DNA of 64,000 nucleotides from a virus (lineage: Duplodnaviria > Caudoviricetes): positions 291-64,290 of IMG/VR virus record IMGVR_UViG_3300020710_000008; one strand, 5' to 3'. The position numbers and the translations under genes were made by a program. The notes under the pieces were generated by a model, which was not told the DNA's origin, ran no database searches, and saw only the letters and a program-made list of their open reading frames with translations. Numbering within the stretch: the stretch's first letter is position 1; each line of letters starts with the position of its first letter. This document shows, one piece after another, positions 2,345-31,758 of this stretch.

Positions 2345-3346
2345 TCACCCAAATGTTTTGTTTGCCAAGTCTCTCATGCGTTCTGTATCATCCTTAATCT
2401 TTTTTGTAGATGCTTCTCTAAACTCTGGAGTGTCGAGAATTTTAAATCTTTTTTCCATAGCCGTTCTCGACCATTTATCTCCAGCACCCCAGGCTCCAGT
2501 GTTCCAATCACGCCAGAAGTAGTTCTCTCTTTGTTTAATTAGAATATTATCTTCATCTAGATGATTTTTATTGGCTGTTTTACACTGCCAACGGTTGTCC
2601 ATAGCTTTTAAACGAGCAAACAAATCCCAAAATTCTTCGTCTGTATATAGGGGTTCCGGTGTGGGGTCATTCTCCCTTTCGAATAAGTCCTCAGGGGTTG
2701 CATACCACACTTCTCTGTAAAAAGCAACAAACTCTGGGTCATACTCCTTATGATTAGGGTTAGCGTAGTTTACCAGACAGCGCCACCAATGACGATCCCA
2801 TTTTTTGGTTACTCTTTTCCCACTATCCATAATGGCGTTTTTTACCCCAGTGAGCGGGGGGAATGTTGAATTGTACAGTTCAGTAAACTCTGGATCAAAA
2901 TGAAGGGTCTTATGGGTAAGTGTCCACAAATCTGAGTAGAGATAATCGCAGCTAAACACCCTACGGCCATTCTCCATAAGTTCTTTTCTAGAAGACTTTA
3001 GCCTCTCTACTTCGGAATTAAAGGCTTCTTCTTGAGAGAGTCCATTTCTTAGGTAGTAATTAGAGGTCTTGCTCATGTTATAAGCAGGATCTAAAGTGTC
3101 CAAGTAGTGTTGTTCACGCTTTTGTATTTCTGTTTTATCACACAATTCAATTATTTGAAATTCAAAAAGTTCAGGCCCATGCTGGGTCCAAGCCTCCTGA
3201 AAACGACTAGAATGGTGCTTACCCTCATTGGCCTCTTTTTTATGAGAAGACCATCTATGTTGAATATTAATCGAAGCACCAACATAGATGTCATTGGTGC
3301 TTCGATTAATGATGGAATAAATTCCAATTAGGGCAGATTTAGCCAA
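2345..3346 (-). CDS. GIY-YIG endonuclease with atypical C-terminal repeat region
   Basis: GIYSI...IYVGAS...RWSSH...EQHYLD...YN motifs; TTG start with SD GAGAGG. Confidence 0.85.
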   Translation of the reverse strand: MAKSALIGIYSIINRSTNDIYVGASINIQHRWSSHKKEANEGKHHSSRFQEAWTQHGPELFEFQIIELCDKTEIQKREQHYLDTLDPAYNMSKTSNYYLRNGLSQEEAFNSEVERLKSSRKELMENGRRVFSCDYLYSDLWTLTHKTLHFDPEFTELYNSTFPPLTGVKNAIMDSGKRVTKKWDRHWWRCLVNYANPNHKEYDPEFVAFYREVWYATPEDLFERENDPTPEPLYTDEEFWDLFARLKAMDNRWQCKTANKNHLDEDNILIKQRENYFWRDWNTGAWGAGDKWSRTAMEKRFKILDTPEFREASTKKIKDDTERMRDLANKTFG

Positions 3347-8902: not shown

Positions 8903-9156
8903 TACTGTTTTCCTTTAAAGACTAATTCTTTTTTGGTAATCTCAGGACCGTTTCCTGATAGGGTTTCCACATACCAAATATTACCATTTGGCTCTCTGAT
9001 CAGATACCTAAAGGGGGTATCCCCATCTGGAGAAAGTGAAATTTCGCTATTTGGAAAAGTTGATTCCACACTTTTACGACAGTAATAGGCAGAGGTGGCG
9101 TTGTTATTGCACCCAACCAACATAACTAAAACGAGCAAGGAAAATAAATATCTCAT
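8902..9156 (-). CDS. Putative lipoprotein
   Basis: MRYLFSLLVLVMLVGC lipobox. Confidence 0.65.
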   Translation of the reverse strand: MRYLFSLLVLVMLVGCNNNATSAYYCRKSVESTFPNSEISLSPDGDTPFRYLIREPNGNIWYVETLSGNGPEITKKELVFKGKQ

Positions 9157-9422
9157 CCCTTGGACCCCTCTTCACGAAAAGTTCTGAAATTAGGTTTCAT
9201 ATGCTTTTTAGCCAAAAGCTCAGCACGAGAAAACCAAAACTTTTTGTTATCCCCATCTACTTTGACTTTCACCTCGGGTTCATGAGAAGTCCAATCATTG
9301 TTTTGAGTGGTATTACACCAACGGCGACCAATAGAGTATTTCTCTAGAGTCTTCCACTCTCCTTGAGCCCCAAATAAAATCATGAAGCAGTAGCGAATAA
9401 ATAGTCCGATATTGTATAACAT
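9153..9422 (-). CDS. Hypothetical protein
   Basis: Likely ATG 9422 (MLYNIGLF) after AGAGG. Confidence 0.5.
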   Translation of the reverse strand: MLYNIGLFIRYCFMILFGAQGEWKTLEKYSIGRRWCNTTQNNDWTSHEPEVKVKVDGDNKKFWFSRAELLAKKHMKPNFRTFREEGSKG

Positions 9423-9426
9423 TGGC

Positions 9427-9627
9427 TTACCTCTTTTCCAAAAAATTGAGCATTCCATCCAGTTCAACAACTGCACACAAATAACCTGAGGCCACTCCAT
9501 TATAGAACGAAGCGTCTGTTGGATTGTTGCTCCAATTAGCTTCATGCGCTCTAGCCGCTGCATGTTCTGCCTTTCTCCTGAGGATATTGCGAAGTGATTG
9601 AATAGCTGCTTTTTCTAGCTTAGTCAT
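9427..9627 (-). CDS. Hypothetical protein
   Basis: ATGA overlap with the upstream kinase gene. Confidence 0.55.
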   Translation of the reverse strand: MTKLEKAAIQSLRNILRRKAEHAAARAHEANWSNNPTDASFYNGVASGYLCAVVELDGMLNFLEKR

Positions 9628-10055
9628 ACCACCTCGCTAAACCCATAGGGAACATCAATACGAGCAATCATACGCTGAATAGATTCCAAAGGAACCTTAT
9701 GGACATTACGCTGGAAGCAGAGTTCAGCTTCTCCCTTGATAACATCCATCCAGACCTCATAGCCACGGCTACGGGCCTCTTCAACATAGAACTTACGCTC
9801 CCTGGCAGTGGTATTAGTGTTATCCACAATCACCAACTCTTTGCCAGCAACGAGAGCATCCACATAAAGGCTTTGGCAAGTTTGGTGCGCCATATACAAC
9901 TTAGCTCGATCAAAGACATAGTTTCCATCCACCTCAAAATAGTGATCCGCCGAGACAATGGCTCGGTTCTCTTCCTTAATATCCTTAATATGATCTTTGA
10001 CCCAGGTGGACTTTCCAGAACCCGGCGCTCCGACCATCAAGATGACTTTTCGCAC
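9624..10055 (-). CDS. P-loop polynucleotide-kinase-like protein (AAA_33 type)
   Basis: LMVGAPGSGKSTW, VSADHYF, VIVDNTN; GTG start 10055 after GGAGG. Confidence 0.8.
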   Translation of the reverse strand: MRKVILMVGAPGSGKSTWVKDHIKDIKEENRAIVSADHYFEVDGNYVFDRAKLYMAHQTCQSLYVDALVAGKELVIVDNTNTTARERKFYVEEARSRGYEVWMDVIKGEAELCFQRNVHKVPLESIQRMIARIDVPYGFSEVV

Positions 10056-10240
10056 TTTTCCTCCGTATTCGAATTTGCCCACTTCATGCCATAATACACA
10101 TTGAAAGCTGCACACTGCATGGCTGTAAACCAAGCTATGGACTTCAGAAGAGCGTGTGGACCAAGAAGAAAACTAACAATAAAAATCCCAGCGGACCCAA
10201 TACCCACACTTGTCAAATACAGCTTAGTTGACTTTTTCAT
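10037..10240 (-). CDS. Small membrane protein
   Basis: Two hydrophobic helices. Confidence 0.55.
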   Translation of the reverse strand: MKKSTKLYLTSVGIGSAGIFIVSFLLGPHALLKSIAWFTAMQCAAFNVYYGMKWANSNTEEKCEKSS

Positions 10241-10454
10241 TTTCTTTTTCCGTCTTTCTGATGAAATAGAGCAGGTTGACCAGAGTGTAGGGCCAAATGG
10301 CCGCTACTGGAATACAGAACAAGAACATGGGAAAGAATCCTCCATGCTTATCATAAGTGGGGCGAATCTCGGCATCAAAGTAGCCGATGGTCATATAACC
10401 CCATAGGAAGAGTAAGGTAGCGAGAGCGGGGAAGGCCCAAATCTTTGTCCACAT
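10224..10454 (-). CDS. Small membrane protein
   Basis: Two hydrophobic helices. Confidence 0.55.
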   Translation of the reverse strand: MWTKIWAFPALATLLFLWGYMTIGYFDAEIRPTYDKHGGFFPMFLFCIPVAAIWPYTLVNLLYFIRKTEKENEKVN

Positions 10455-10456
10455 AA

Positions 10457-10618
10457 CTAGCTCCTAACGATATAGCCGAGAGCCATGAGAAACTGGACGC
10501 CATTGACAACGGCGAGAGTCCCCAGGATGAACTTGATCAGCGTATTCCAACCCCGGCTAGACCAGCAGAGAGTCAAAAGAGCAAAAGCTGCCGTATTAAG
10601 TCCAAGAATGGTTGTCAT
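10457..10618 (-). CDS. Small membrane protein (53 aa, below ORF-track cutoff)
   Basis: GGAGG SD plus AGTATAAT; MTTILGLNTAAFALLTLCW... Confidence 0.55.
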   Translation of the reverse strand: MTTILGLNTAAFALLTLCWSSRGWNTLIKFILGTLAVVNGVQFLMALGYIVRS

Positions 10619-10779
10619 GTTATTGCCTCCAATGGTATTATACTAGTCTTGAAAGGATTTCAGGACAAAGGGTTTCACAATCTTTTTCTTATTCTTCAGC
10701 ACCTGGGTAGAGGTATTAATGATAACACCCAAAAGCGACAAACGAGCCGCATTCTTATGGGCCTTAAGCGTTTTCTTTT

Positions 10780-10938
10780 TCATCGCTTACCTCCTTTATT
10801 TGGGATGGGTTCTAGGCCAGTTCCGTTACACCAGCCACACTTAGGACTTCCAGTGACATCGTAGATTCCAGAACCACTACAGGCAGTGCATTTGCGGGGT
10901 TCGATTCTGATTCCAATGTGCTTTTTCTTGAACTTCAT
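10780..10938 (-). CDS. Small DnaJ-type zinc-finger protein (52 aa)
   Basis: CTACSGSG...CGWCNGTG (two CxxCxGxG motifs); GGAGG SD. Confidence 0.65.
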   Translation of the reverse strand: MKFKKKHIGIRIEPRKCTACSGSGIYDVTGSPKCGWCNGTGLEPIPNKGGKR

Positions 10939-11630
10939 CGCTTCCTCCTTTGGGTTACATGCTTCCAGCGTTTACCTTTTCGGATGCAACAGACAATACT
11001 AGGGCTGATACCATACTTTTTTGCTAAGGCAACTCCAGGCTCTTCACTAATAAAAATTTCTCTAACTTGATCATCGGTAAGTTTAGCCGCATAGGAAGCC
11101 ATTCCCTGCACGGCTAGTGTGAGGCTCAGCCTGTTCTGATCTGAGATGGTTTTGCCAAATCGTGGATGATTGCTTCCGCTGTTAGCATCGGATATCTTTT
11201 GCCTACTTTCCGCTGACAGGGTATGGCCTATTTGACCTATTGCTATGTTTTCCCTAGCCTCTTCAGATTTTTGTTTTCCTTTCCTCTCAATCGAATACCG
11301 CAATTTAGTAGCTTCAGAGTGTTTCCTACCTGACATTGGGGCTAGGGCGTCTTTACTTATGTTATAGCACTGCACCCCACCATCCCAATACACATCCAAG
11401 CAGCGTTGTTCAAATAACAGCAGATCCCTTTCGTCACAATATAAAACTACCTCGTAACTAAATGTGTCTCCATACCTATTGTAAGAATCCTGAAGATGTG
11501 GATTAGCGTGTTTATTGTGCTTAAGTCCTGTTTTGTGGTAAGCCCATCTGCGAGGAATATTTTTAGATGACCCAATATACACCTTATTGGTTACGAAGTT
11601 TGTTATTTTATAGATGCCAGATGTTTTCAT
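10935..11630 (-). CDS. GIY-YIG homing endonuclease with NUMOD3-like repeats and C-terminal HTH
   Basis: GIYKITN...VYIGSS...RW..H; HSEATK and HTLSAESR repeats. Confidence 0.9.
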   Translation of the reverse strand: MKTSGIYKITNFVTNKVYIGSSKNIPRRWAYHKTGLKHNKHANPHLQDSYNRYGDTFSYEVVLYCDERDLLLFEQRCLDVYWDGGVQCYNISKDALAPMSGRKHSEATKLRYSIERKGKQKSEEARENIAIGQIGHTLSAESRQKISDANSGSNHPRFGKTISDQNRLSLTLAVQGMASYAAKLTDDQVREIFISEEPGVALAKKYGISPSIVCCIRKGKRWKHVTQRRKR

Positions 11631-12052
11631 GCAATATCTTTGCTGTTTGCTATTGTGCTATGGAATGTTTTTTCAAAACCCTCAATGGGATCATGATATT
11701 CCGGGGACAATGGAGCGTTGTGAAGTCCAAGTTCTGCTCGGATTTCTTCAAGGCGAGTGGAGAAGCAATCCAGCCACCAATAGACTTTACCCTGGAAGAT
11801 GTAGTTGCTGTAGGTGAATTCTACCCGCTCACCCTCATACTTACCCCAAGCCTTGAGATTTTTGGGCTTCTCGTAACGGACCACAGTGATGTGGGGATCG
11901 TAACGCTGTCCATTGGCCTTGAACCACTTGGGAATGAGGGACTTGTAAAAGAGACCGATACCCTTATCAATATTCAAAACGAGTCGGTACCCGTAGCCAG
12001 GTACATGGTCGTAGTGGAGAGTCCCCACGGACTTGAAGAAAGTCTCGCTCAT
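11627..12052 (-). CDS. 2H phosphoesterase family protein
   Basis: Two HxT motifs: PHITVV and FHSTIA. Confidence 0.7.
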   Translation of the reverse strand: MSETFFKSVGTLHYDHVPGYGYRLVLNIDKGIGLFYKSLIPKWFKANGQRYDPHITVVRYEKPKNLKAWGKYEGERVEFTYSNYIFQGKVYWWLDCFSTRLEEIRAELGLHNAPLSPEYHDPIEGFEKTFHSTIANSKDIA

Positions 12053-12076
12053 AGACCTATTATACTGCGGCTCTGC

Positions 12077-13801
12077 CTACTTCTTCTCCAATATTTTTAC
12101 GAGCCCATCATAATACTTTTTCTCTAATTCTAAGTGAGCATACATAATTCCATCTGTTTTATTAGTATAATACTCTGTTATACTAATATGTTTAACAAGC
12201 CAATTGACAACTTGATTATGGTCAAAACCTGAAATGCCCTTCTTCTTAAAGCCATCTACTAAATTATTAGCAAATTCAATTGGACCTGAATTTGCTAAAG
12301 CTTTCCTCTGGAACCCCACATCTCCAAGAGAGTTAGCTGCTTCTTGAGCGACAAACCCCAAAGATGTGGGAGTTGTGGGGCTCTTTACCCAAGTAGGTAG
12401 AGATTGCTGAACCATAGCTGGAGGTTCAGGCGGCATATCTAAAGCGGCCTTTTTCCAATTGGCGATGTTGACTTCCCCATCAGCAGAGCCCTCAGGCTTG
12501 CTCACATCTTTGGCAAATCCCCAATGAACCTCAGCATCAGTTCCTCTAGCTTTGGAGTTATGTATAGCTAATTGTTTGACTTGCTGCATGACTGGCCCAG
12601 GTAGCTCCTTGAGGTTATCTGGATTACGAACTACGATATGAGAGCCTGGAGCCCCTGCGACATGGAACCAAAAATCATTAGAATTAGCTACTTCAAGAGA
12701 TAAAATGTCGTTTTCAATGGCAGAACGTCCGATAAGAATCTGGAAGCCCTCAAAATCCTGAAGCTTATACGGAGCCTTAGCGATTTTCCCAATCTTAGGA
12801 ACTACATTGGTTTCCCAATATTCTTTGTTCCCAATCCTATTGAAGTCAATCCCTGGAATAGCCAGCCATTTCTTGCTATGTTCTTTCGCGGCATTGACAT
12901 CAAATCCTGTGTAATCATCTTTTACCCATAACCATTTGTGATGCCAAATAGCAGCCGTGCTACCATTTTTATGATCACCATTTGACTTAACTACAACGTA
13001 GTTACCAGCTACAGGTTCATCAGCGGTATCAAAATCAGGGGACTCGAAAAAGGTGTAAGTTCCATCTTTATTCCACTTAATGACGTTATAATTGGGAAGA
13101 CTGACTAGTGCAATCTCCTCTGCTTTAGCCAAGGCTTCTTGGTTTGGAAGCGAACCTTTATAGTTCCTATGGAGATAGATAGCGCCCCCAATGTCCTTAC
13201 CCACCCCTAAATAGGATCTTCTAATAGGAGTCCCTTTTTCTGTTTTTAAATCAGAGGTCTTAGATCCACCCTTAGCTTCGATGGCCAATCTAGCAGCTTC
13301 AGCCGTGTAGGGCTTCCAATCCTTCTTTCCAAAGAACTTGACATATAAATCCTGCCAATCCTTTTCTGATTTGATATTAGGCATATGCGTAACCAAGAAG
13401 CCAACATCAACAGGATCGTTGGCCTTTTCCTCTGGCCTTCCTGACATGATCTTCAAACATAGAAGATATTCCTTTGAGGGTAATTCTATACTGAGATTTG
13501 AAAATTGAGGGCCTGGAACTGTCTGGCCTTTCTTGGGAGCATAGTAATCTTTACTGGTATCATTGAACCAGTCATCAGATAGATCCATTTCCCAGGTCAC
13601 TTGTTCCACAGCAGCTTGCAACTCGGGTGACATATACCCAGCATCTAGATCCTTGACCTCTCTGGGGAAGTCTGGGAACTGGAACATGATGGCAGCACCA
13701 CCAGTGATAACCACAGTAGCTTTCTGGTTCTTGGCCTTTAAAACGGCATTTACGGCTTCTAGAGCGGCCATTACTTTGGAGCGGTCCATATTCATAATCA
13801 C
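12077..13801 (-). CDS. Multidomain protein: DUF6036/MenT-like nucleotidyltransferase + phosphorothioation-associated-protein-like domain + NFACT-R (DUF814) + unknown C-terminal domain
   Basis: GGAAI...REVKDLD...DWFND (NTase); GKDIGGAIYLH...YNVIK...PDFD...IWHHK; GRSAIEND.L...DFWFHVAGAPGSH.VV (NFACT-R). Confidence 0.7.
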   Translation of the reverse strand: MIMNMDRSKVMAALEAVNAVLKAKNQKATVVITGGAAIMFQFPDFPREVKDLDAGYMSPELQAAVEQVTWEMDLSDDWFNDTSKDYYAPKKGQTVPGPQFSNLSIELPSKEYLLCLKIMSGRPEEKANDPVDVGFLVTHMPNIKSEKDWQDLYVKFFGKKDWKPYTAEAARLAIEAKGGSKTSDLKTEKGTPIRRSYLGVGKDIGGAIYLHRNYKGSLPNQEALAKAEEIALVSLPNYNVIKWNKDGTYTFFESPDFDTADEPVAGNYVVVKSNGDHKNGSTAAIWHHKWLWVKDDYTGFDVNAAKEHSKKWLAIPGIDFNRIGNKEYWETNVVPKIGKIAKAPYKLQDFEGFQILIGRSAIENDILSLEVANSNDFWFHVAGAPGSHIVVRNPDNLKELPGPVMQQVKQLAIHNSKARGTDAEVHWGFAKDVSKPEGSADGEVNIANWKKAALDMPPEPPAMVQQSLPTWVKSPTTPTSLGFVAQEAANSLGDVGFQRKALANSGPIEFANNLVDGFKKKGISGFDHNQVVNWLVKHISITEYYTNKTDGIMYAHLELEKKYYDGLVKILEKK

Positions 13802-13818
13802 CTACACATTAGAAATGA

Positions 13819-14208
13819 TTAGTCAGAATTTCCATGAATAGGGCAAGCACCACTGACAATCCCATAGCCAGTCCCCCAACGTTCTGCATTGTCTATCTTA
13901 GGGCAACGGCATTTAGGCACAGTATACCAGTGATGGAAATTGGCATTCTGTTCAAAACCCCAAACTTGCTGGAGTTCAAACTGAAGCCTCTTCCATTCCA
14001 TATTAAGAACTTTTAGAGTTCCTACGTCATCAGTATGCTCCATAGCATTTAGAATATTTTGTACCCCCAGGTGAAGAGTCCTGAGTTCCCCCAATCCTTC
14101 TAGGGTAATCTTCTGCTTCTTACACAGATTGGGATTGATATAGAAGGGCTCTCGGCCAGGATATTCAACAATGAAGCTTTCTGACTTACTGTAGTCAATT
14201 TTAGTCAT
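13819..14208 (-). CDS. Hypothetical phage protein with C-terminal Cys/His cluster
   Basis: PKCRCPKIDN...CPIHG. Confidence 0.65.
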   Translation of the reverse strand: MTKIDYSKSESFIVEYPGREPFYINPNLCKKQKITLEGLGELRTLHLGVQNILNAMEHTDDVGTLKVLNMEWKRLQFELQQVWGFEQNANFHHWYTVPKCRCPKIDNAERWGTGYGIVSGACPIHGNSD

Positions 14209-14217
14209 ACTTTCTCC

Positions 14218-14856
14218 TTAAATTTCAAAAATGATTGGTGCATTGATCGGCCTCAAACGATTATCGCAAATGCAGGCATTTACAAATACTGTATCCCCCC
14301 GCCTTCCGCGACCATAACCTGGATGAACGTGACCAAATACATGATACTTCGGTTTCTTATTCTGAACCGCTTGCAGGAGTTGGTAGTTACCCAGACATTT
14401 CTGTTTAAAATCTTCACAGACCTCATCAAACATTCCGTACGGAGGAACATGGGTAATCAAAAGATCCAATTCATCTGGGATTTCTTGATGAAGATCCTGA
14501 AGATCCTTGGTATCATCTGTAAAGTTAGGATGAACGGGGGCTCCATAGACAAATAGGTCTTTCTTGCCATCTTCTTGAAGGAACCGTCCATCATTTTGCA
14601 AATAGATGATGTTATTTTCTCTACAGAGGATCTGAATGATCTCCCTGTCAATGTGGTAATCGTGATTACCCGGCACATAAATCTTGTGTTTGTAAGGGAG
14701 GTAACCATACCAATCGAAGAAGGGGATTAATTCATCAAGAGTCCCCTTATCTGTAGCATCACCCGCATGGACAATCACATCCCCCTCTGGCAGCTTACCG
14801 TCCAGAACCTCGTGCTGATTATGCGTATCAGTAATAGCTACTATTTTCCAAGTCAA
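14218..14856 (-). CDS. Calcineurin-like metallophosphoesterase
   Basis: DTH, HAGD, GNHD, THVPP, FGHVH. Confidence 0.9.
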   Translation of the reverse strand: MTWKIVAITDTHNQHEVLDGKLPEGDVIVHAGDATDKGTLDELIPFFDWYGYLPYKHKIYVPGNHDYHIDREIIQILCRENNIIYLQNDGRFLQEDGKKDLFVYGAPVHPNFTDDTKDLQDLHQEIPDELDLLITHVPPYGMFDEVCEDFKQKCLGNYQLLQAVQNKKPKYHVFGHVHPGYGRGRRGDTVFVNACICDNRLRPINAPIIFEI

Positions 14857-14864
14857 CGGAGAAA

Positions 14865-14898
14865 TCCCCCTACCTCTATTATACCAGGGATAGGGGGA
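14865..14898 (-). promoter_or_regulatory. Stem-loop with TATAAT in the loop; covers the RBS of 14856 and may also act as a terminator
   Basis: TCCCCCTA/TAGGGGGA arms (extendable) around attatacc; followed by UUUC on the minus strand. Confidence 0.55.
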
Positions 14899-14909
14899 AA
14901 TTGATCCTT

Positions 14910-15107
14910 TTAAATATAATCCAAGAAAGAAGTCATGAAATCTTTAAATCCTTCACGATTCAAATCTTGGCCTGATTTAGTAAAACGACTCTTTAGAACT
15001 CTATAGCGGCCACCTTCAGTCACAACGATTAAAGAAGCATTGTGAGTTTGGGTTAAGGGGAGAGACCCCAATTCTTTTTCAGTTGCAATGATAATCGTTC
15101 TAGTCAT
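14910..15107 (-). CDS. Hypothetical protein
   Basis: Likely start ATG 15107, overlapping the upstream stop. Confidence 0.5.
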   Translation of the reverse strand: MTRTIIIATEKELGSLPLTQTHNASLIVVTEGGRYRVLKSRFTKSGQDLNREGFKDFMTSFLDYI

Positions 15108-15606
15108 CGCTGCCCCCACAACTAGAACTTGAGGAGTCACTAGAGCTTGAGGAGTCCCCCCAATCACTAGAACTTGAAGACTGCTCTCCCCAATCACTAT
15201 GAGACTCAATGGAAATGGGGACATAGGGCTCAGGAGTGGGATCTGGTGTTGGATCGGGAGTAGAGGAATCAGTAAGAATATCACTCACTAAAGCGGCAGC
15301 AGTAACTCCGATAGCCAGATCCATCAAATCATCTGAGCCAGCATCCTCTTCTACTACTACATTTGTCTTAGGAGTCCCCCAAAAAGACTGCTTCCTGCCC
15401 AGCGTGGCAGCAGCGTAAGGAGGAATATCCTTGCTCACTGGAACGACTAGCACAGTTGGCTTATCTGGGGTATCATAGGAACTGATAATCTCCGGGTAAA
15501 CTGGAGCCATTAGATCAGTAATAGGCTGATCAGTCTTATGAACCTGATACCAAACTCCAGCCGCAATTGCAGCCAGTCCAACGATAGCAACTACGATCCA
15601 AATCAT
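15100..15606 (-). CDS. Membrane-anchored protein with Ser/Asp-rich low-complexity tail
   Basis: N-terminal transmembrane segment; SSSSSDWGDSSSSSDSSSSSCGGSDD. Confidence 0.7.
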   Translation of the reverse strand: MIWIVVAIVGLAAIAAGVWYQVHKTDQPITDLMAPVYPEIISSYDTPDKPTVLVVPVSKDIPPYAAATLGRKQSFWGTPKTNVVVEEDAGSDDLMDLAIGVTAAALVSDILTDSSTPDPTPDPTPEPYVPISIESHSDWGEQSSSSSDWGDSSSSSDSSSSSCGGSDD

Positions 15607-15614
15607 TATTTCTC

Positions 15615-16658
15615 CTATGGGATGAGACTACGAGCAGCTTGACTAATCATAAAATTGATTTGAGTTCCGGACATGCCCTCTTTGATGTTTTGCTTGATGA
15701 AGAAATCCAAGTCCACTACCAAATTAGTCAGGTCTCGTGGCATGACCATGAGCCAATCCAAAGGCATACCACGTTTGATACCCTTGCTAATACTGATCAA
15801 ATCATCAGCTTCGGGGCCTTCTTTTTTCCAGCGAGTGATCATATCAAACAGGCTACAAGCATTATTATAAGAGTCACTATAACCCAATTTTTTCAGTGCC
15901 TGGGCACGGATACTCTTGGGGATAGCACAGAAAAACTCAACCATATACATGTTCCAAGAGTAATCTCGGCCCTCCACAAAAAAGGGACCAATGGGGAGCC
16001 ATTCCTTAATTGCTCTAGCCACCTCAATATTCTGGTTCAGCACCCACATGAACGTTCTCAGATTCTTGGCCTTTTCCAGTTCTCCACGGATACGGTCAGC
16101 CGGAACTGCATACAATTCCTTAGAGGCCACAGCCATCAGCTTATAAGTCTCATGGGTAACAGTCCAGTTTCCGGAAGAAGCAAAACGAGCTACCCTCAAA
16201 ACACGAACTGGGTCTTCAGCAAATGCTTCAGAACAAGCGTGGAGCAGCAAGTTAGCCATATCATGAGCAGACCTCTCAATAGGGCAAACCAGACCCATAT
16301 CAGGGTGCCACAGCATTGCATTGATAGTCAGGTCACGGCGCAGACAGTCCTCCTTGAAGGAGGGAGTGTAGCTGGTTTCAAACCCAGTATAGCCTACACC
16401 AGTCTTGCGCTCTGTGCGAGTGCAAGCCAGTTCACCAACTCCGGTGTGGAAGACAGGGAAAGCTTTACCGACCTTCTCATAGCCCATACCCTCAACACGA
16501 TCAGGGTCCATGTTGGTTACAAAGTCGAAGTCCTTGGGGGTCTTCCCCAACATTAGATCACGAACAGCCCCGCCAACTAGATAGACATGACCACCAAACC
16601 CTGCGGCTCGGTCATTCAGTTCTTTCATGTGGTCAATGATGTGTTGCGGAACTTGCAT
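15615..16658 (-). CDS. cca: tRNA nucleotidyltransferase (CCA-adding / poly(A) polymerase class II)
   Basis: YLVGGAVRD..LG..PKDFD, DC.RRDLTINAM, AF.EDPVRVLRVARF. CCA versus poly(A) specificity cannot be decided from motifs alone. Confidence 0.8.
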   Translation of the reverse strand: MQVPQHIIDHMKELNDRAAGFGGHVYLVGGAVRDLMLGKTPKDFDFVTNMDPDRVEGMGYEKVGKAFPVFHTGVGELACTRTERKTGVGYTGFETSYTPSFKEDCLRRDLTINAMLWHPDMGLVCPIERSAHDMANLLLHACSEAFAEDPVRVLRVARFASSGNWTVTHETYKLMAVASKELYAVPADRIRGELEKAKNLRTFMWVLNQNIEVARAIKEWLPIGPFFVEGRDYSWNMYMVEFFCAIPKSIRAQALKKLGYSDSYNNACSLFDMITRWKKEGPEADDLISISKGIKRGMPLDWLMVMPRDLTNLVVDLDFFIKQNIKEGMSGTQINFMISQAARSLIP

Positions 16659-16687
16659 GAGTTCTCCTGCTGCTATTATACTGGGGC

Positions 16688-16933
16688 TCAGGGCTTTTCT
16701 GCTAGAATCTTTCGGCCCTCGTTAATCCACAAATTCCTGCGGGTATCGGGGACAGAGAAGGAATCGGCAATAGTCTTACCATGGCGAAGTCCACCAGATT
16801 TGCCAACGAAATAGTGAATAAGGTGGGCGGCGTGGTCTTCTGCAAAGACCAGATACTTAGTGCTGCGAGAAGGAATTTCCCTCCAGCCATTGGCTTTCAG
16901 ATAAGCGGAAATACATTCGCGTTGAGTGGACAT
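16688..16933 (-). CDS. Hypothetical protein
   Basis: ATG 16933 after GGAGG and AGTATAAT. Confidence 0.6.
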   Translation of the reverse strand: MSTQRECISAYLKANGWREIPSRSTKYLVFAEDHAAHLIHYFVGKSGGLRHGKTIADSFSVPDTRRNLWINEGRKILAEKP

Positions 16934-16952
16934 AGAAACGCCTCCAAGGTTA

Positions 16953-17765
16953 TTATACTGCGTCACGGACCAGATTTACTACGGCAAAATACCCAGCTTG
17001 CTGCTTGGTGAAACGATTGACGATACGGCCCAGCAATTCCACACCACCATCCAGAGCGTCATCCCATACATCCTCAGGACTATCGTTCTGGGTGTGGAGA
17101 GTGTTCCAAGTAACAGGGTGCTTGTCATAGAACTCCTCTTCAGGAAGAGCGCAGACTAAAGCAGTGGGAATCTGCATACGAATCATATTCAAGTTGTCAG
17201 ACGGAGGGGTCTTGCGGCTAGGAAGATCATAGACCAGCCCAGTATCGTCATAACCAGAAACGAAGAAGGTGGTCCCAATTCCAGTGACATCAAAGATGAT
17301 AGACTGGAGGGGCAGATTGTCCTTGTGCATCTGAGTGTAGACTTTAGATCCCATGCATTCAGAACCAAAAATCTCCTCATGATCAAAGAAGCAAAAGGTG
17401 ATATTAGGCTCTTTACCAGAGTCCTGCAATTGGCTAGCCGCTTCAATAAGCTGGATGACTGCTGCACCATTATCGTTGGCACCAGGGCAATTGGGGACAG
17501 CATCGTAATGAGCCCCGATGAGCAAATGGTCCTTTTGCTCACCAAAGACCACCAGGAAATTCACAGTCTCCCAGGCATCAGCAGTGAAAGAGGGCCAAAC
17601 TTTACGCTCGATAATCAAACGAGTGGGGAAACGCTTACGGAGAATGGCTTCTAGGCGGGTCTGGCGCATATCAATGGCAGTGGCTTCGCAAAGATCAGCT
17701 AACATTGCCTTTAAATCAGGCTTTACATCTTCAATTGTATATTCTATTACGGTTTCAGGGTTCAT
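16953..17765 (-). CDS. M28 family metallopeptidase
   Basis: GAHYDA, PGANDNGA, FDHEE, FDVTG, LHTQND. Confidence 0.85.
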   Translation of the reverse strand: MNPETVIEYTIEDVKPDLKAMLADLCEATAIDMRQTRLEAILRKRFPTRLIIERKVWPSFTADAWETVNFLVVFGEQKDHLLIGAHYDAVPNCPGANDNGAAVIQLIEAASQLQDSGKEPNITFCFFDHEEIFGSECMGSKVYTQMHKDNLPLQSIIFDVTGIGTTFFVSGYDDTGLVYDLPSRKTPPSDNLNMIRMQIPTALVCALPEEEFYDKHPVTWNTLHTQNDSPEDVWDDALDGGVELLGRIVNRFTKQQAGYFAVVNLVRDAV

Positions 17766-17805: not shown

Positions 17806-18633
17806 TCAGTCTAAGTATTTATCACTATGGAGATATTGATTAACTCCCATATTCCAAATCTTAGTATCGGTCTCATTCAGTTTAATGCCAGTTTTCTCGT
17901 AACCTTGATCCCCTGCGATGAGCCCATAGAGTTCACCCTCAACATCAATGGCCCAGTCATAAGCATCTGCAAGCACATTAGTTTGGATTCCAGCAGATTC
18001 TAATCTGGCCCAAATAGTGGTAGACTTGAAAGCTCTGGTATTAACCGTAGCCAGGGCCTTGTCCTTCCAGTAGTCATAAGACTCTTTCAGGGCCTTCTCA
18101 AAGGCTTCGGGGGACATAAGAGTATTGGAGCCACCATCAGCCCCAAAATGATTAGCCATCAAAGTACCCACGTTCATAGGTGCAGGGAAGTCAGTAGGGT
18201 GAGTCAAAATAGTGATAAAGTCCCATTCGGCCCCAGAGCGGGGTTCGTCCTTCTCCTCCAGAACAGAACGATTATAGAGAATAGCTTCCACTAAAGCAGC
18301 ATCTGGGAGACTTTCTACGATGGCTCTGGTAGTCTTTCTAGGCGTTTCTCCAACTACTCTGGACTCCATAGTGGTTTGAAAGATAGTATCCTCATTAACG
18401 ACTACTGTACGCGATTTCCAACCAGCGGGGGGCAAAGTAATTCTAAGCACTCCATCTCTGTATCCTGGTCTAATTTTAGTGCCAATGTCTTTAGTTGTGA
18501 GTTGGGCTATATAGCTGAGATTTTGGTTAGGATGCCAATTCTTAGGAGCAATATCAGCAAATTTTTCGGCATGAATCTGTTCAGTCAAAAAAGGACTGTA
18601 GTCTACATTGAGCCTCATAAATTTTTCTACCAT
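17806..18633 (-). CDS. DUF3228-like protein
   Basis: GYRDG...ILY...PM...LMAN.FG..GGS...SY.YW..KA parallels the DUF3228 pattern (recalled, not searched). Confidence 0.5.
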   Translation of the reverse strand: MVEKFMRLNVDYSPFLTEQIHAEKFADIAPKNWHPNQNLSYIAQLTTKDIGTKIRPGYRDGVLRITLPPAGWKSRTVVVNEDTIFQTTMESRVVGETPRKTTRAIVESLPDAALVEAILYNRSVLEEKDEPRSGAEWDFITILTHPTDFPAPMNVGTLMANHFGADGGSNTLMSPEAFEKALKESYDYWKDKALATVNTRAFKSTTIWARLESAGIQTNVLADAYDWAIDVEGELYGLIAGDQGYEKTGIKLNETDTKIWNMGVNQYLHSDKYLD

Positions 18634-20950: not shown

Positions 20951-21491
20951 TTGGATTTTCCTTTATGATGTTCAATACTGTAGAATTCTCTAAATAGGTA
21001 ACTGCACTTTTAATTAGGTTTAAATCATCACCAAAAGCCCCTAAGCCCCTATTACACTTGGCACAAAGGATACCTCGGACCTTGTTTGTTTGGTGATCAT
21101 GATCAATATGCCAAGTATCCGGGGTAATAGCAATATGACAAATTTTACATTGACGGTTTTCAATTTTGAAAAAATCTCTAGTCTCTTCTCCATACATTTT
21201 AACCGCATGGTTTACTCTCATGCAATAGCGGCAATAATCGTTAAATCCATCTTTTCTGCATTTTAATTTGTTGAAATTAGTGGTAGCTAAGGTCTCTCTG
21301 CAAGCCCTACACTGCTTGACGCCAGGATCTGGCTTGTCCATTGCCTTTATTTTGTGATATTTGCTTTTTGCATAAACACCCAAACATATTTTACACCAAT
21401 GACATAACCCATCAGCACGATGTTTGTTACTATAAAAGTCAGTAAGGGATTTAAGTTCCTTACATTTTGTGCAGCGTCTAGCTGACTCCAT
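20934..21491 (-). CDS. Endonuclease VII-family (HNH) putative homing endonuclease
   Basis: N-terminal CxxC...CxxC repeats; C..C...HIDHDH.T.KVRGILC..CN.GLG.F.D. Confidence 0.85.
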   Translation of the reverse strand: MESARRCTKCKELKSLTDFYSNKHRADGLCHWCKICLGVYAKSKYHKIKAMDKPDPGVKQCRACRETLATTNFNKLKCRKDGFNDYCRYCMRVNHAVKMYGEETRDFFKIENRQCKICHIAITPDTWHIDHDHQTNKVRGILCAKCNRGLGAFGDDLNLIKSAVTYLENSTVLNIIKENPNGCPS

Positions 21492-22080
21492 TTGGGTTAT
21501 CCCTTATGATATCTAGCACAGTATCTAATGCTACGGGTGCGTACTGCCACACATCTACCCCGACATTAATTTGCTTGCCTTTGAACTTCCATTGACCATG
21601 AACATGGCCATGAATGAGCCACTTACCCTCGTTAACAGGCTGTAAAGCCTCATAACGGCCTTCATAGGCATGATCAGTGAACTCAGGATCAAGATAAGGG
21701 TAATGACAAAGCAAAACATCTTCTCCAGAGCAGAGGGGAAGGGTGAGTGTCTCCTGGATAACCAAGAAATACTCGTGGTAACTCCTCAACCACTTCTCCC
21801 TAGCTTCAGGCTTCTTGTGGTGATAGGCAACAGAGGGACGATCATGGTTACCCAGGATCAGTATCTTATTGCCATTTAGCCGCTGGAGGAGGGGAAGAGA
21901 ATCAGCCAACTTACCCATACAGGCATCTCCAAGGTGATAGCAAGTATCCCTAGGGCCAACAACTGCATTGTAGTTTTCGATGAGCTTCTCATTCATCTCT
22001 TCCACAGATCGAAATGGCCTATCGGCCAATTCAATAATCCTCTCGTGTCCAAAATGAGTATCTGCGGTAGCCCAAATCAA
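21478..22080 (-). CDS. Phage calcineurin-like metallophosphoesterase
   Basis: ADTHFGH, HLGD, GNHD, CHYP, HGHVH. Confidence 0.9.
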   Translation of the reverse strand: MIWATADTHFGHERIIELADRPFRSVEEMNEKLIENYNAVVGPRDTCYHLGDACMGKLADSLPLLQRLNGNKILILGNHDRPSVAYHHKKPEAREKWLRSYHEYFLVIQETLTLPLCSGEDVLLCHYPYLDPEFTDHAYEGRYEALQPVNEGKWLIHGHVHGQWKFKGKQINVGVDVWQYAPVALDTVLDIIRDNPNGVS

Positions 22081-22560: not shown

Positions 22561-23109
22561 TTAGTTAGATAAAATAGTGAAGGGGGGCTCTACACCCATC
22601 GCATATGTAGTTGCAGCCTCAAGAGCTTGCTGTATTTTTCTTCTCGGCAACATTCTCTTTGTTAGTAGCATTGTAGTGTATAATGAACCAAACGCGACAC
22701 CAGAGCCACAGCCTATAGCATAATAGTTGCATTTTGGTTCTCCAATCTGAAAATCTTCTTCTAAAACATACAGCCTTCCGTTGTAGCCAATCAAAGCTCC
22801 CCCAGGAACACTTTCCTCATTATCATCTATTTTAGTCAGACCCGATCCCTTGCAGGTATGTCTTAGGGCGTCTAGCCAATCAGTTACAAGGTATTCAAAA
22901 TCTTCTTGCTCATCTCGCTTAACTGGAGGATCAAATCTATATTTTAAAATTTGACCCAAACGAAATGAACCAGAATAGCCGATAAGAAAATCCTCTTTGA
23001 TGAAGACCTTTGGATCTTTTCTAATGACCTTCTCAGACCCATCAGAGGCACAGGAGTCTCCTCCCATCCATACTTTGCCTTTAGCGGCTATTCCTACAAT
23101 ACAAGTCAT
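22561..23109 (-). CDS. HslV/proteasome-beta-like Ntn-hydrolase peptidase
   Basis: M-T-C-I-V-G N-terminal Thr, GGDS, PKV, GYSG, AIGCGS. Confidence 0.7.
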   Translation of the reverse strand: MTCIVGIAAKGKVWMGGDSCASDGSEKVIRKDPKVFIKEDFLIGYSGSFRLGQILKYRFDPPVKRDEQEDFEYLVTDWLDALRHTCKGSGLTKIDDNEESVPGGALIGYNGRLYVLEEDFQIGEPKCNYYAIGCGSGVAFGSLYTTMLLTKRMLPRRKIQQALEAATTYAMGVEPPFTILSN

Positions 23110-30729: not shown

Positions 30730-31758
30730 TTACAATCCAAAAAACGACTTTAACAGCGAACCAAGCTTTTTTACCCATGACATTAAAAAATTCGTGCATG
30801 ACTGCTCCTTATTTTTGACTTTCAAAATTTCATGTCTAACTGCGTTTATTTGTGTGTTCTTATACCATTGATTCAGCCATTCATAATCTGGCTTCTCTCG
30901 GAGAGTGGAGGTTTCAAACAACCTATCTCCCTTTGCCATCAGTTCGTCAATGAGGTTGCTGACTTCTCCATTAGTGAGCTTACCATTACGGATGTCAAGC
31001 AGGAGTTCCTTTTCAGGACGAGGGTAAGTTACCGTCCCATACTCAAGGATTTCGTTCATTTCGCTTATAATGCGTACCGCATGATATAGGGCCTTCAAGT
31101 CCTTACCATCGTTCTCCTTGGCTTTCACGGCGCGAGTCCCGTAGGTTTTGCGAAGTTTGACCAGGGCATCCAACCACAGCTTAACAGTGGTGGTCTCCCC
31201 AAAGGATTTACCACAGATTTCCATCAAACGGGTCTCCACCTCACCCTTGACATCTGTCCAGAATCTAACCGTTGGGCGACCAGTAAAAGCCACCGTAAGT
31301 TGATCCCAGCAAAGTCGAGGGAGGAAGTTGGGGGGATAGCCACTAAGGAAGAAGATCACTTCATCTAAAAGCTGGAGCTTCTCACCTTTGAGGGAGTATT
31401 TGACAGCTTGATCTCGGGCATACCCAACAAAGGGCTTCAGAGCCTTGGAGACTACCTTGTCCTTGTTGAGAACCAACTCCTCCCATTCAGGAGTAGACTC
31501 CAGCCACATATTCTGGGGAGCAAATAACATAGAATAAGCCACAGTCTGACCAGAAGCCATCAGGTCAGCAAAAGCCTTGATGTAATACATTTCATGCTCT
31601 TCGTTTTTTTCCTCATCCTTCCACTGGATATTAGTGGGGGCAAGACTGACAAGCTCATCCAAAGACTGAGTGAACACACCCTTGAAATCCTTATCGGAGG
31701 TAGGCTGAGCCACACCATAAAGGTGAGAGCCGTATAGACATTTAAACAGGGTCTTCAT
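30730..31758 (-). CDS. Pol-beta-superfamily nucleotidyltransferase (PF10127-like)
   Basis: YGSHLYG...TSD.D.KG; K.L.HA.R...E..EIL..G. Confidence 0.8.
   Translation of the reverse strand: MKTLFKCLYGSHLYGVAQPTSDKDFKGVFTQSLDELVSLAPTNIQWKDEEKNEEHEMYYIKAFADLMASGQTVAYSMLFAPQNMWLESTPEWEELVLNKDKVVSKALKPFVGYARDQAVKYSLKGEKLQLLDEVIFFLSGYPPNFLPRLCWDQLTVAFTGRPTVRFWTDVKGEVETRLMEICGKSFGETTTVKLWLDALVKLRKTYGTRAVKAKENDGKDLKALYHAVRIISEMNEILEYGTVTYPRPEKELLLDIRNGKLTNGEVSNLIDELMAKGDRLFETSTLREKPDYEWLNQWYKNTQINAVRHEILKVKNKEQSCTNFLMSWVKKLGSLLKSFFGL

Follow-up and report, generated by a model that had tools for sequence, protein, structure and literature searches.

A putative RNA-end-processing locus in the genome of a large freshwater phage

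Do five genes for RNA-end enzymes that lie close together in a phage genome constitute one module, and for what purpose may they be kept? The question is raised by positions 9624-16658 of a 64-kb stretch of phage DNA, which was analysed as a whole and is called the window here. A PNK-like kinase, a 2H phosphoesterase, a nucleotidyltransferase (NTase)/NFACT-R fusion, a metallophosphoesterase (MPE) and a CCA-adding enzyme had been predicted there and read as an RNA-end-healing module for counter-defence with a ribosome-linked component. The locus is best explained as one portion of the equipment with which a large freshwater phage processes RNA ends. Family assignments and gene neighbourhoods in other phages favour the end-healing reading; the five genes, however, do not form a single conserved module, and only part of them behaves as one.

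Gene content of the locus

Each of the five predicted genes was confirmed, and all are encoded by the minus strand (Table 1). Their common orientation, which was part of the original prediction, carries no weight because nearly all genes of the window lie on that strand. The gene list was incomplete, since it lacked a homing endonuclease gene and several genes for small membrane proteins that lie between those for the 2H enzyme and the kinase. The start of the endonuclease gene overlaps the stop of the 2H gene by 4 nt, and it is a mobile insert outside the proposed pathway. For the 168-aa protein no Pfam or PHROG family was found, and phage homologs of the 129-aa protein are encoded near dCMP deaminase genes.

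The motif AGTATAAT occurs 17 times in the window against 3.07 expected occurrences, a number reached in none of 100 shuffles. Three copies divide the locus into three putative units, and the kinase sits in a separate unit. The kinase likely starts at GTG 10055, which is preceded by GGAGG (GGAGG-N4-GTG). Its best partial NCBIfam matches are PSTK (3.9e-9), bacterial Pnkp (2.1e-8) and PNK-3'Pase (7e-7), and its best PDB matches are PSTK, T4 PNK and the kinase of CthPnkp.

Table 1. Features of the locus and related genes of the window.
Feature	Position	Strand	Evidence or remark
PNK-like P-loop kinase, ~143 aa from GTG 10055	9624..10055 (ORF 9624-10133)	-	Pfam AAA_33 2.4e-15
AGTATAAT motif copy	10637-10644		
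GIY-YIG + NUMOD3 homing endonuclease	10935..11630	-	Pfam NUMOD3 4.5e-14, GIY-YIG 1.3e-7; phrog_314 2e-33
Compact 2H phosphoesterase, 2H-SAK-like family, 141 aa	11627..12052	-	HITV and HSTI motifs; phrog_12204
AGTATAAT motif copy	12059-12066		6 nt ahead of 2H start
Four-domain fusion protein, 574 aa	12077-13801	-	NTase, WHHKW, NFACT-R, C-terminal domain
Small alpha/beta C-terminal domain, residues 480-574	12080..12364	-	Structure model; after disordered Pro-rich linker
NFACT-R, bacterial RqcH/FbpA type, residues 345-452	12446..12769	-	Pfam PF05670 2.3e-11, above cut-off
WHHKW domain, undescribed alpha/beta, residues 183-340	12782..13255	-	Alignment; phrog_16075
Minimal MenT/AbiEii/DUF6036-like NTase, residues 1-178	13268..13801	-	DUF6036 6.5e-5, just under cut-off
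129-aa Cys-containing protein, function not assigned	13819..14208	-	phrog_16704
MPPED2-like calcineurin-fold MPE, 212 aa	14218..14856	-	Pfam Metallophos 5.8e-15; PDB MPPED2 3rl4 6e-35
168-aa protein, function not assigned	15100..15606	-	N-terminal membrane helix; acidic Ser/Asp-rich tail
Class II CCA-type tRNA nucleotidyltransferase, 347 aa	15615..16658	-	PolyA_pol head, Pfam PF01743 2.4e-18; phrog_2244 1e-59
AGTATAAT motif	16675..16682	-	16 nt upstream of CCA gene start
Phosphoesterase	21478..22080	-	phrog_547 7.4e-53; homolog of phosphoesterase after kinase in Pontus
RlaP-family (RNA-ligase-associated Pol-beta) NTase	30730..31758	-	Pfam PF10127 5.6e-14

The CCA-type enzyme is assigned to class II, a label under which the specificity (CCA, CC or A) is not readable from sequence. 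Its motifs A, B and D (EDxxR) are intact, and GGAVRD...DFDF, RRD and EDPVR are kept in 11 relatives. In the PDB it matches the A-adding and CCA enzymes of A. aeolicus (1e-17), and the NCBIfam model of the multifunctional CCA protein is matched at 6e-44, under the cut-off. Pfam recognizes the head domain only, with neither an HD domain nor a PolyA_pol_RNAbd (PF12627) match.

The 2H protein of the window matches the Pfam 2H-SAK model at 7e-4, and its 20.3 bits are below the 27-bit cut-off. The model (PF22547) is matched by 23 of its 37 relatives, at best with 6e-7. Both HxT motifs are present, and H54, H131 and T133 are invariant in the relatives. In nine IMG/VR loci without synteny to the window, a member of this 2H family is preceded on its own strand, at a distance of about 600 nt, by a CCA gene (27-29% identical), and at 10 loci a cRec cyclic-phosphate-processing gene is the neighbour.

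The fusion protein probably starts at ATG 13795. Both domains named in the original prediction are real; a WHHKW domain and a C-terminal domain had been missed. The GG...DLD motif of the NTase is kept in eight homologs, and its fold matches MenT4 (Z 7.2), MenT1 (Z 6.6) and ANT(2'') (Z 6.4). The homolog P0008 matches AbiEii at 1.9e-8, and in P0007 the NTase module is joined to a NUDIX and an HD_4 hydrolase domain. The NFACT-R domain carries the motif DFWFH...PGSH and is matched by 5h3w (1.2e-9) and RqcH (3e-8) in sequence, and by 5h3w (Z 15.3, rmsd 2.0, 109 residues aligned) and CCDC25 (Z 12.9) in fold. It is a ribosome-binding-type module, by which the protein may indeed be linked to the ribosome as predicted. 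The C-terminal domain, which the fusion protein shares only with P0005 in the alignment, is weakly Lpp20-like in fold (Z 9.4, rmsd 2.8, 101 residues aligned).

The WHHKW domain is widespread and undescribed, with 1030 clusters at 50% identity. In the alignment R..VGK, Y.H and IWHHKWLWVKDDYxGFDV are invariant. Its AF2 model (pLDDT 88) has no fold match in the PDB, and no Pfam or NCBIfam family matches the sequence. It is known as a solo domain and as a part of giant polyvalent proteins; one clade has it fused to CCA enzymes, with a LigT-like 2H gene alongside. For the most part the domain is solo or belongs to DNA-oriented polyvalent proteins, and only one or two of the best 150 representatives carry a CCA head. 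At 10 loci from a clade other than that of the window, a gene for WHHKW or WHHKW-CCA(+HD) is immediately preceded by a LigT-like 2H gene. The WHHKW-fused CCA enzymes carry an HD domain, whereas the CCA enzyme of the window has none and shares its unit with a metallophosphoesterase instead.

Linkage in relatives and the proposed pathway

Neighbourhood conservation had been named as a check, and for three of the genes a linkage is indicated. The CCA enzyme, the NTase-NFACT-R protein and the small 2H protein appear to co-occur on contigs in at least three relatives, as deduced at the level of whole contigs from their identical size and source in a cluster look-up and three independent searches with proteins. 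The MPE and the kinase are outside this trio. The contigs are of 12,118 bp (JGI; fusion homolog P0003, 2H P0065, CCA P0130), 13,347 bp (ENA; P0001, P0395 and P0127) and 286,616 bp (P0008, P0387 and P0129). Pairs are found on four more contigs, namely fusion and CCA (6,144 bp), fusion and 2H (9,369 bp and 3,925 bp) and CCA and 2H (11,792 bp). Since the contigs all come from a single phage clade, shared ancestry may account for the linkage.

For the trio we see about an even chance that it repairs or matures tRNA 3' acceptor ends without a ligase, with a possible link to the ribosome. Domain identities, motifs and gene linkage are observed, whereas substrates, order of steps and ribosome binding are inferred, as would be a counter-defence purpose. 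The 2H enzyme would open a 2',3'-cyclic phosphate of the kind that a metal-independent RNase leaves, and a phosphomonoesterase would then take off the phosphate. The MPE in the unit of the CCA gene is a candidate for this step, either as phosphomonoesterase or as cyclic phosphodiesterase; its closest solved relative, MPPED2, is a nucleotide phosphodiesterase. The tail would be rebuilt by the CCA enzyme, and the fusion protein would deliver both a second NTase and WHHKW to tRNA ends, perhaps at the large ribosomal subunit via NFACT-R. As the original prediction had remarked, no RNA ligase was found in the window; this is no obstacle to the repair of tRNA 3' tails, because 3'-end repair needs no ligase. 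A class II CCA enzyme was reported to counteract the tRNA-tail toxin MenT3 when overexpressed (PMC11541572). Counting against the scheme are the dispersal of the genes in distant relatives, the nucleotide-metabolism setting of an MPE homolog, the mostly solo or polyvalent occurrence of WHHKW and the lack of tRNA genes in the window. Phage tRNA maturation is an equal alternative to the counter-defence purpose.

The same chemistry would serve in a housekeeping maturation of phage-encoded tRNAs, in which the CCA enzyme tails tRNAs without encoded CCA, the 2H enzyme and the MPE clear blocked ends that processing leaves behind, and host defence plays no part. Many large phages have tRNA arrays plus CCA enzymes (PMC7824862). 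However, neither a tRNA gene nor an Rfam ribozyme was found within the 64-kb window, and the MenT-like NTase, NFACT-R and the polyvalent-protein context of WHHKW are left unexplained. We regard this explanation as unlikely.

It is likewise rather improbable that the clustering is meaningless and that the locus is a variable region, full of homing endonucleases, in which independent accessory genes happen to follow one another. The 2H enzyme and the MPE would then degrade nucleotide second messengers, as proposed for some phage 2H enzymes (PMC5512222), or serve nucleotide metabolism. The set is broken up by the endonuclease and small membrane-protein genes, and the nearest isolate homolog of the MPPED2-like MPE, from Tunturi_5, is encoded beside genes of nucleotide metabolism (a dNMP kinase and a nucleoside deoxyribosyltransferase). 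The genes are dispersed in distant jumbo-phage relatives: Tunturi_5 has its CCA gene at 234 kb and its MPE gene at 62 kb, and in the 316,801-bp IMG/VR record holding L002 the positions of WHHKW, kinase and CCA are 129, 159 and 212 kb, respectively. Against this, the 2H family recurs in non-syntenic phages with CCA enzymes and cRec genes as neighbours and matches the RNA-repair model 2H-SAK, and the trio is retained across 39-89% protein identity. Very improbable is an offensive take-over, in which NFACT-R targets the MenT-like NTase to ribosomes or tRNA, host tRNA tails are altered and host translation stops while CCA enzyme and 2H shield or rebuild those tRNAs on which the phage depends: the closest NTase folds are tRNA-tail toxins (MenT4, MenT1, TglT), P0008 matches the AbiEii toxin family and WHHKW is fused to a YafQ-type RNase in P0053, but fold scores of Z 6-7 are middling and are shared with antibiotic nucleotidyltransferases, and the NUDIX and HD_4 context in P0007 looks restorative, not toxic.

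Besides the ligase-independent repair proposed for the trio, a second branch is suggested by the kinase, the RlaP gene and the phosphoesterase at 21478-22080, which would depend on a ligase encoded outside the window. The RlaP gene lies beyond the region of the original prediction and belongs to the RNA-repair toolkit of the phage; homologs are found in 1739 phage records. Vibrio phage Pontus encodes a kinase homolog (39% identical) that is flanked by an annotated RNA ligase on one side and a phosphoesterase on the other, in the order ligase, kinase, phosphoesterase, and tblastn of Pontus gp169 against the phosphoesterase of the window gave 7e-17.

Comparison with known systems

WHHKW is also found within polyvalent proteins of 2,000-6,400 aa with LPD38, SNF2 helicase and methyltransferase domains, and NFACT-R is likewise found fused to SLT (P0018, P0019). 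In proteins of this type fused domains need not belong to one pathway (Iyer et al. 2017, PMC5512222). The protein of the window, in contrast, is small (574 aa, four domains), and no packaging or injection of it is known. With the MenT/AbiEii (DUF1814) toxins its NTase has in common a minimal NTase with a GG...DxD motif and a likeness in fold. MenT enzymes act at tRNA acceptor ends (PMC11541572). The phage NTase, however, has no antitoxin partner, is part of a multidomain protein and has DUF6036 as its own Pfam match.

The NFACT-R fold is shared with RqcH/NEMF and with the solo NFACT-R proteins CCDC25/Jlp2. A D-W-H-type motif, needed by RqcH for 50S binding, is kept in the phage domain; NFACT-R of RqcH touches the 50S A-site finger through its DWH motif (bioRxiv 10.1101/2020.09.03.281279), and that of Jlp2 was reported to hydrolyse peptidyl-tRNA (bioRxiv 10.1101/2025.09.04.673968). 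Unlike RqcH/NEMF, the fusion protein lacks NFACT-N, HhH and coiled-coil, and its NFACT-R is joined to NTase and WHHKW. The 2H family resembles the 2H-SAK domain of Swiss-army-knife (SAK) RNA-repair proteins in that model and in both HxT motifs, but its members are standalone proteins of 130-150 aa and not domains of a SAK protein.

T4 Pnkp and Rnl1, which mend cuts in the anticodon loop as a counter-defence against PrrC, are paralleled by the PNK-like P-loop kinase and the phosphoesterases for end healing, and their ligase context by the gene order in Pontus and the RlaP gene. In contrast to T4, no ligase was detected in the window, the kinase is standalone without a HAD phosphatase, and the co-inherited trio needs no ligase.

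In eukaryotic ribosome quality control Vms1/ANKZF1 cuts the tRNA, ELAC1 removes the cyclic phosphate and TRNT1 re-adds CCA. As an analogy only, a quality-control-type module, cyclic-phosphate removal and CCA re-addition are paralleled in the phage setting, where no Vms1-like nuclease is among the set and the 2H enzyme and the MPE would replace ELAC1. With the multifunctional CCA addition/repair protein of the E. coli type the window enzyme shares the class II head with motifs A, B and D. It differs by the lack of the HD phosphohydrolase domain and of the PF12627 match, and the esterase steps would go to separate genes (2H, MPE), while in relatives the E. coli-type architecture of class II NTase and HD is itself fused to WHHKW. 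The logic would be common to both: a phosphorylated or cyclic tRNA 3' end is cleaned, and then CCA is rebuilt.

Genes of the locus and their genomic setting

The five genes of the original prediction are all real and could be confirmed by family matches or motifs: those for a PNK-like kinase, a 2H phosphoesterase, a fusion of a nucleotidyltransferase with NFACT-R, a metallophosphoesterase and a CCA-type enzyme. That gene list was not complete, as it missed a homing endonuclease gene directly after the 2H gene and several small genes for membrane proteins ahead of the kinase. The co-orientation of the five genes carries no weight, since nearly every gene of the window lies on the minus strand. 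The coordinates are given in the following table.

Features of the locus (9624-16658) and related genes of the window; units are those that would follow from the putative promoter motif
Feature	Position	Strand	Putative unit	Characteristics
GIY-YIG homing endonuclease	2345-3346			
PNK-like kinase	9624-10133, likely start GTG 10055 behind GGAGG	-	3	AAA_33 P-loop kinase
Small membrane-protein ORF	10037-10240			between homing endonuclease and kinase, near the 52-aa ORF
Small membrane-protein ORF	10224-10454			as above
Small membrane-protein ORF	10457-10618			as above
52-aa ORF	10780-10938	-		two CxxCxGxG motifs, DnaJ-type zinc-finger pattern
Homing endonuclease	10935-11630	-	2	GIY-YIG/NUMOD3
2H phosphoesterase	11627-12052	-	2	both H-x-T motifs; under Pfam cut-off by itself
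Fusion protein, 574 aa	12077-13801	-	1	NFACT-R; minimal nucleotidyltransferase, GG...DLD intact
129-aa protein	13819-14208	-	1	phrog_16704
Metallophosphoesterase	14218-14856	-	1	strong similarity to mammalian MPPED2
168-aa protein	15100-15606	-	1	
CCA-type enzyme, 347 aa	15615-16658	-	1	class II nucleotidyltransferase head, motifs A, B, D
270-aa protein	16953-17765	-		just upstream of CCA gene; partial M28/M20 peptidase match
275-aa protein	17806-18633	-		also upstream of CCA gene; DUF3228
Phosphoesterase	21478-22080	-		phrog_547
Second phosphoesterase	23109-24254	-		phrog_20266
GIY-YIG homing endonuclease	29652-30458	+		I-TevI-like; flanks RlaP gene
RlaP-family nucleotidyltransferase	30730-31758	-		RNA-ligase-associated Pol-beta family

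The motif AGTATAAT occurs 17 times in the window, where three copies are expected. Minus-strand copies are found just before the starts of the CCA gene, the 2H gene and a small gene upstream of the kinase; more generally, copies lie 6-20 nt upstream of many minus-strand starts (e.g. sites 16675, 12059, 10637, 16952 and 17783, minus strand). If these copies are promoters, the locus would comprise three units. At the 2H gene the motif is located only 6 nt from the ATG and no Shine-Dalgarno sequence is present, a hint that its transcripts may lack a leader or have a very short one. A scan of the locus with sigma-70 and terminator consensus sequences gave no more hits than expected from shuffled sequences. 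In the metatranscriptome run X24 just four short contigs cover the 168-aa gene, the CCA gene and one neighbour, which is no demonstration of transcription.

The window represents the region of early and replication genes of a large phage. Among the proteins that could be recognised are helicases, a UvsX-like recombinase, an NAD-dependent DNA ligase, endonuclease VII and several homing endonucleases. At least three of the latter are of the GIY-YIG type within the 64 kb; mobile endonucleases have colonised this region heavily. The DNA of the locus has no megablast match among phage records, and the nearest isolate as judged by the recombinase is the 308-kb Tunturiibacter phage Tunturi_5 (46% protein identity). 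The CCA protein of the phage is found on contigs of up to 117 kb, and the genome reaches far past the window. No tRNA genes and no matches to Rfam families were found within the window. Its DNA recurs almost unchanged in over 20 metagenome runs of lakes and fresh water that span the years 2012 to 2020 (positions 9000-17500 at 99% identity or above in 23 runs of 2012, 2016 and 2020), which indicates a persistent, little-changing phage population.

Core enzymes and their linkage in relatives

The CCA-type enzyme has a class II head, which scores 67 bits against PF01743 (cut-off 23), and its motifs GGAVRD...KDFDF (A), RRDLTINA (B) and EDPVRVLR (D, EDxxR) are conserved in 11 relatives. Its C-terminal 150 aa are divergent. 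The neck/body RNA-binding family PF12627 matches neither this enzyme nor its 10 closest relatives, and neither an HD domain nor a recognisable RNA-binding neck was found in the 347 aa. The 2H protein carries the motifs HITV (H54) and HSTI (H131), of which H54, H131 and T133 are invariant across 37 sequences. By itself it scores 20.3 bits against PF22547 (2H-SAK), below the cut-off of 27, while 23 of the 37 family members match at E<=0.01 (best 6.2e-7). As a test of Acb1-like or LigT-like identity we also looked for a solved 2H structure, and none was found with the sequence or with the family profile. For the metallophosphoesterase the only sequence relatives in the PDB at E<=0.01 are MPPED2 chains (6e-35). 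Assignment to the RNA 3'-end enzymes of the Pnkp or lambda-phosphatase type was therefore rejected; the protein shares the calcineurin fold and belongs to another family.

The gene set is conserved in part. The genes for the CCA enzyme, the fusion protein and the 2H enzyme occur together on contigs of relatives, which were inferred to be common contigs on indirect evidence: their size and source coincide between three protein searches, made independently, and one look-up of clusters.

Contigs of relatives with homologs of the three linked genes (protein handles with identity to the window protein)
Contig	NTase-NFACT-R	2H	CCA
12,118 bp (JGI)	P0003, 63%	P0065, 89%	P0130, 75%, cut by contig end
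13,347 bp (ENA)	P0001, 84%	P0395	P0127, 77%
286,616 bp	P0008, a more remote homolog with an NTase of AbiEii type and NFACT-R	P0387	P0129, 69%

Pairs of these genes were found on further contigs of 6,144, 9,369, 3,925 and 11,792 bp. Since equal size and source recurred over three queries, a chance coincidence is unlikely; the contigs all come from one clade, so that common descent contributes to the linkage. Nine IMG/VR loci, which have no other neighbours in common with the window, contain a CCA gene (27-29% identical) about 600 nt upstream of a member of the 2H family. In ten loci the 2H family has a cRec 'cyclic-phosphate processing' gene as its neighbour; DUF2828/DUF7788 and VWA genes are each neighbours in six overlapping loci. 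IMG/VR scans with an exact 50-mer, with the CCA protein, with a CCA alignment and with the metallophosphoesterase found nothing, and the 2H profile found one 1-kb MAG contig among genome contigs.

The conservation does not extend to the whole set of five genes. The CCA and metallophosphoesterase genes are 170 kb apart in Tunturi_5, where the latter adjoins a dNMP kinase and a nucleoside deoxyribosyltransferase, and in G001, an IMG/VR record of 316,801 bp, the WHHKW (see below), kinase and CCA genes are separated by 30-80 kb. This scattering speaks against a fixed module. The homologs of the 129-aa gene have no RNA-related gene context.

The fusion protein and its WHHKW domain

The fusion protein was described in the original prediction as nucleotidyltransferase plus NFACT-R. 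Both domains are present, and two further parts had been missed. In an AlphaFold model based on an alignment of 35 sequences (mean pLDDT 82), the protein has four domains and a proline-rich linker that is disordered. A small nucleotidyltransferase occupies residues 1-178; its GG...DxD motif is present in all 8 homologs, and it scores 23.2 bits against DUF6036, just short of the cut-off of 23.6. Its nearest folds are the tRNA-tail toxins MenT1 and MenT4 (Z 6.6-7.2), tied with antibiotic nucleotidyltransferases such as ANT(2''). The alpha/beta domain at residues 480-574 is small, and its fold matches are no better than middling.

Residues 345-452 are a genuine NFACT-R domain (PF05670, 44.7 bits, cut-off 29.8), closest to the bacterial RqcH/FbpA type; the fold matches 5h3w with Z 15.3 and an rmsd of 2.0 over 109 residues. 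In the alignment its motif DFWFH corresponds to ELWFH in FBPS and to DIWLH in RqcH. RqcH needs its D-W-H motif to bind the 50S A-site finger (bioRxiv 10.1101/2020.09.03.281279), and for the solo NFACT-R protein Jlp2 peptidyl-tRNA hydrolysis via a histidine of this region was reported in a recent preprint (bioRxiv 10.1101/2025.09.04.673968). Judged from the motif, the histidine of the fusion protein may correspond to H44 of Jlp2. The modules are shuffled among homologs: two proteins (P0005, P0006) combine nucleotidyltransferase and NFACT-R without WHHKW, in one (P0007) this nucleotidyltransferase is fused with NUDIX and an HD_4 hydrolase, and two (P0018, P0019) join NFACT-R to a lytic transglycosylase. 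The NFACT-R of the locus is the first seen joined to a nucleotidyltransferase in a phage, and it may tie tRNA repair to the ribosome.

The remaining part, residues 183-340, was named the WHHKW domain after its motif IWHHKWLWVKDDYxGFDV. It contains invariant Arg, Lys, His and Asp residues and is folded at high confidence in the predicted model (pLDDT 88). No match was found to Pfam or NCBIfam families or, by two methods, to folds in the PDB (best Foldseek E 0.29; best Z 3.7 in a wide VIA search); the protein atlas gave no lead, and a BFVD search returned only a homologous viral protein of 1,232 aa. The HHK...DD residues were also considered as a PLD-like HKD motif, which was discarded because the spacing is off, the motif is not on a strand in the model and neither search returned a PLD fold.

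A profile search of 1.84 billion representatives revealed 1,030 WHHKW clusters at 50% identity. The best 141 representatives include 60 solo proteins of about 160-230 aa and 38 giants of more than 1,400 aa. The 4,323-aa ORF of one locus (L023) carries LPD38, SNF2 helicase and methyltransferase domains besides WHHKW and is therefore a classical polyvalent protein; the recurrence in giant multidomain proteins of phages or plasmids that have LPD and anti-restriction domains, taken here as the mark of that class, holds for WHHKW. Further partners are NUDIX, a YafQ-type RNase with a nucleotidyltransferase, a methyltransferase and a ParB-like domain. In one clade WHHKW is fused to the N-terminus of full CCA enzymes with HD domain, and in ten loci of the clade to which these fusions belong a LigT-like 2H gene lies directly upstream of the WHHKW gene. 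A length-limited search had suggested that the CCA link dominates (CCA fusions as about 40% of WHHKW proteins). This proved to be a sampling artefact, as the exhaustive search places the clade at 1-2 of the best 150 representatives. A metagenome scan with the whole fusion protein returned matches to the WHHKW domain only. WHHKW is thus a well-folded and strongly conserved family outside Pfam, NCBIfam and the PDB, which phages use alone, in polyvalent giants and fused to CCA enzymes.

Some further observations concern the neighbourhood of WHHKW genes. In phage KVP40 (NC_005083.2) tblastn detects a match to a CCA-type nucleotidyltransferase at 14171-14905 of the locus examined (L001), where the record lists no CDS. 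KVP40.0371, which has a WHHKW domain as its N-terminal half, lies about 5 kb away; a spacing of 3-5 kb is also seen in related Vibrio phages. Neighbours of the WHHKW-CCA fusion clade encode a NUDIX-lysozyme fusion protein and a PARP-like ADP-ribosyltransferase (L019 2151-3209, plus strand; L061 12169-12849, plus strand). Antisense to the WHHKW motif region, 25 loci share a conserved open frame of about 137 aa (e.g. L051 8454-8864, minus strand), which most likely reflects the conservation of the sense sequence and is not a gene.

RNA ligase and the possible role of the locus

The kinase contains the Walker A motif GAPGSGKS. Its partial NCBIfam matches to PSTK (L-seryl-tRNA(Sec) kinase, 3.9e-9), Pnkp (2.1e-8) and PNK-3'Pase (7e-7) are far below the equivalog cut-offs. 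The best annotated homolog is gp168 of Vibrio phage Pontus (39% identical), whose gene sits between that of an 'RNA ligase/tail attachment protein' and that of a phosphoesterase homologous to the phrog_547 protein of the window. This context supports the assignment of the kinase to the PNK clade.

The original prediction stated that no RNA ligase is visible in the window, and none turned up. Among about 40 ORFs of the window scanned with Pfam or PHROGs there is no Rnl1, Rnl2, RtcB or Pnkp ligase domain, the sole ligase found being the NAD-dependent DNA ligase, and the Pontus ligase has no tblastn match in the window. A nucleotidyltransferase of the RlaP family, which is named after its association with RNA ligases (PMC7824862), is encoded 14 kb from the locus; the gene of the NAD-dependent DNA ligase is one of its flanks. 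Together with the kinase and the phrog_547 phosphoesterase, it hints at a second branch of RNA repair, which would depend on a ligase.

The RNA-end-healing interpretation of the locus is supported in part. The domain identities are firmly supported, and so is the linkage of three genes, whereas a fixed five-gene module is not; function and purpose are inferred. The recurrent core of 2H and CCA enzyme fits repair or finishing of tRNA 3' ends. At a blocked 3' end the cyclic phosphate would be opened, the phosphate would then be removed and CCA be rebuilt, a route that would require no ligase. The CCA enzyme of the E. coli type has its own HD phosphohydrolase. The enzyme of the window differs in having no HD domain, and a metallophosphoesterase lies in the same putative unit; that the latter complements the former is suggestive and not proof. 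The fusion protein would contribute a second nucleotidyltransferase, the conserved WHHKW domain and NFACT-R, the module that contacts the large subunit in RqcH, and may act on tRNA ends, possibly on ribosomes.

With regard to the purpose, tRNA maturation accounts for the pair of CCA and 2H enzymes as well as counter-defence does. A class II CCA enzyme counters a tRNA-tail toxin when overexpressed (PMC11541572), which makes a role of the locus in counter-defence plausible. On the repair reading, one could imagine that the fusion protein docks on large subunits blocked by damaged tRNA or peptidyl-tRNA, releases or trims the 3' end of this tRNA by a new catalysis of WHHKW, restores nucleotides beyond the reach of the CCA enzyme (e.g. 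the discriminator base) and passes the molecule on to the 2H enzyme, the phosphatase and the CCA enzyme. We consider this detailed scenario improbable. If it were true, it would be a viral, ligase-free counterpart of the tRNA recycling of ribosome quality control, and the WHHKW family, with its roughly 1,000 clusters, would be a new kind of enzyme with wide use in phage counter-defence.

Several toxins and defence effectors of bacteria act on the 3' tail of tRNAs, among them acceptor-end RNases and MenT-type nucleotidyltransferases. RNA repair by phages is known mainly from the mending of anticodon loops by kinase, phosphatase and ligase of T4. Of the kinase-phosphatase-ligase pathway, as in T4 Pnkp/Rnl and bacterial Pnkp-Hen1, the encoded RNA ligase was not found among the ORFs scanned in the window. 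The locus is a variation on phage RNA repair, and together with its relatives it suggests a route that works on the 3' tail of tRNAs and does without a ligase.
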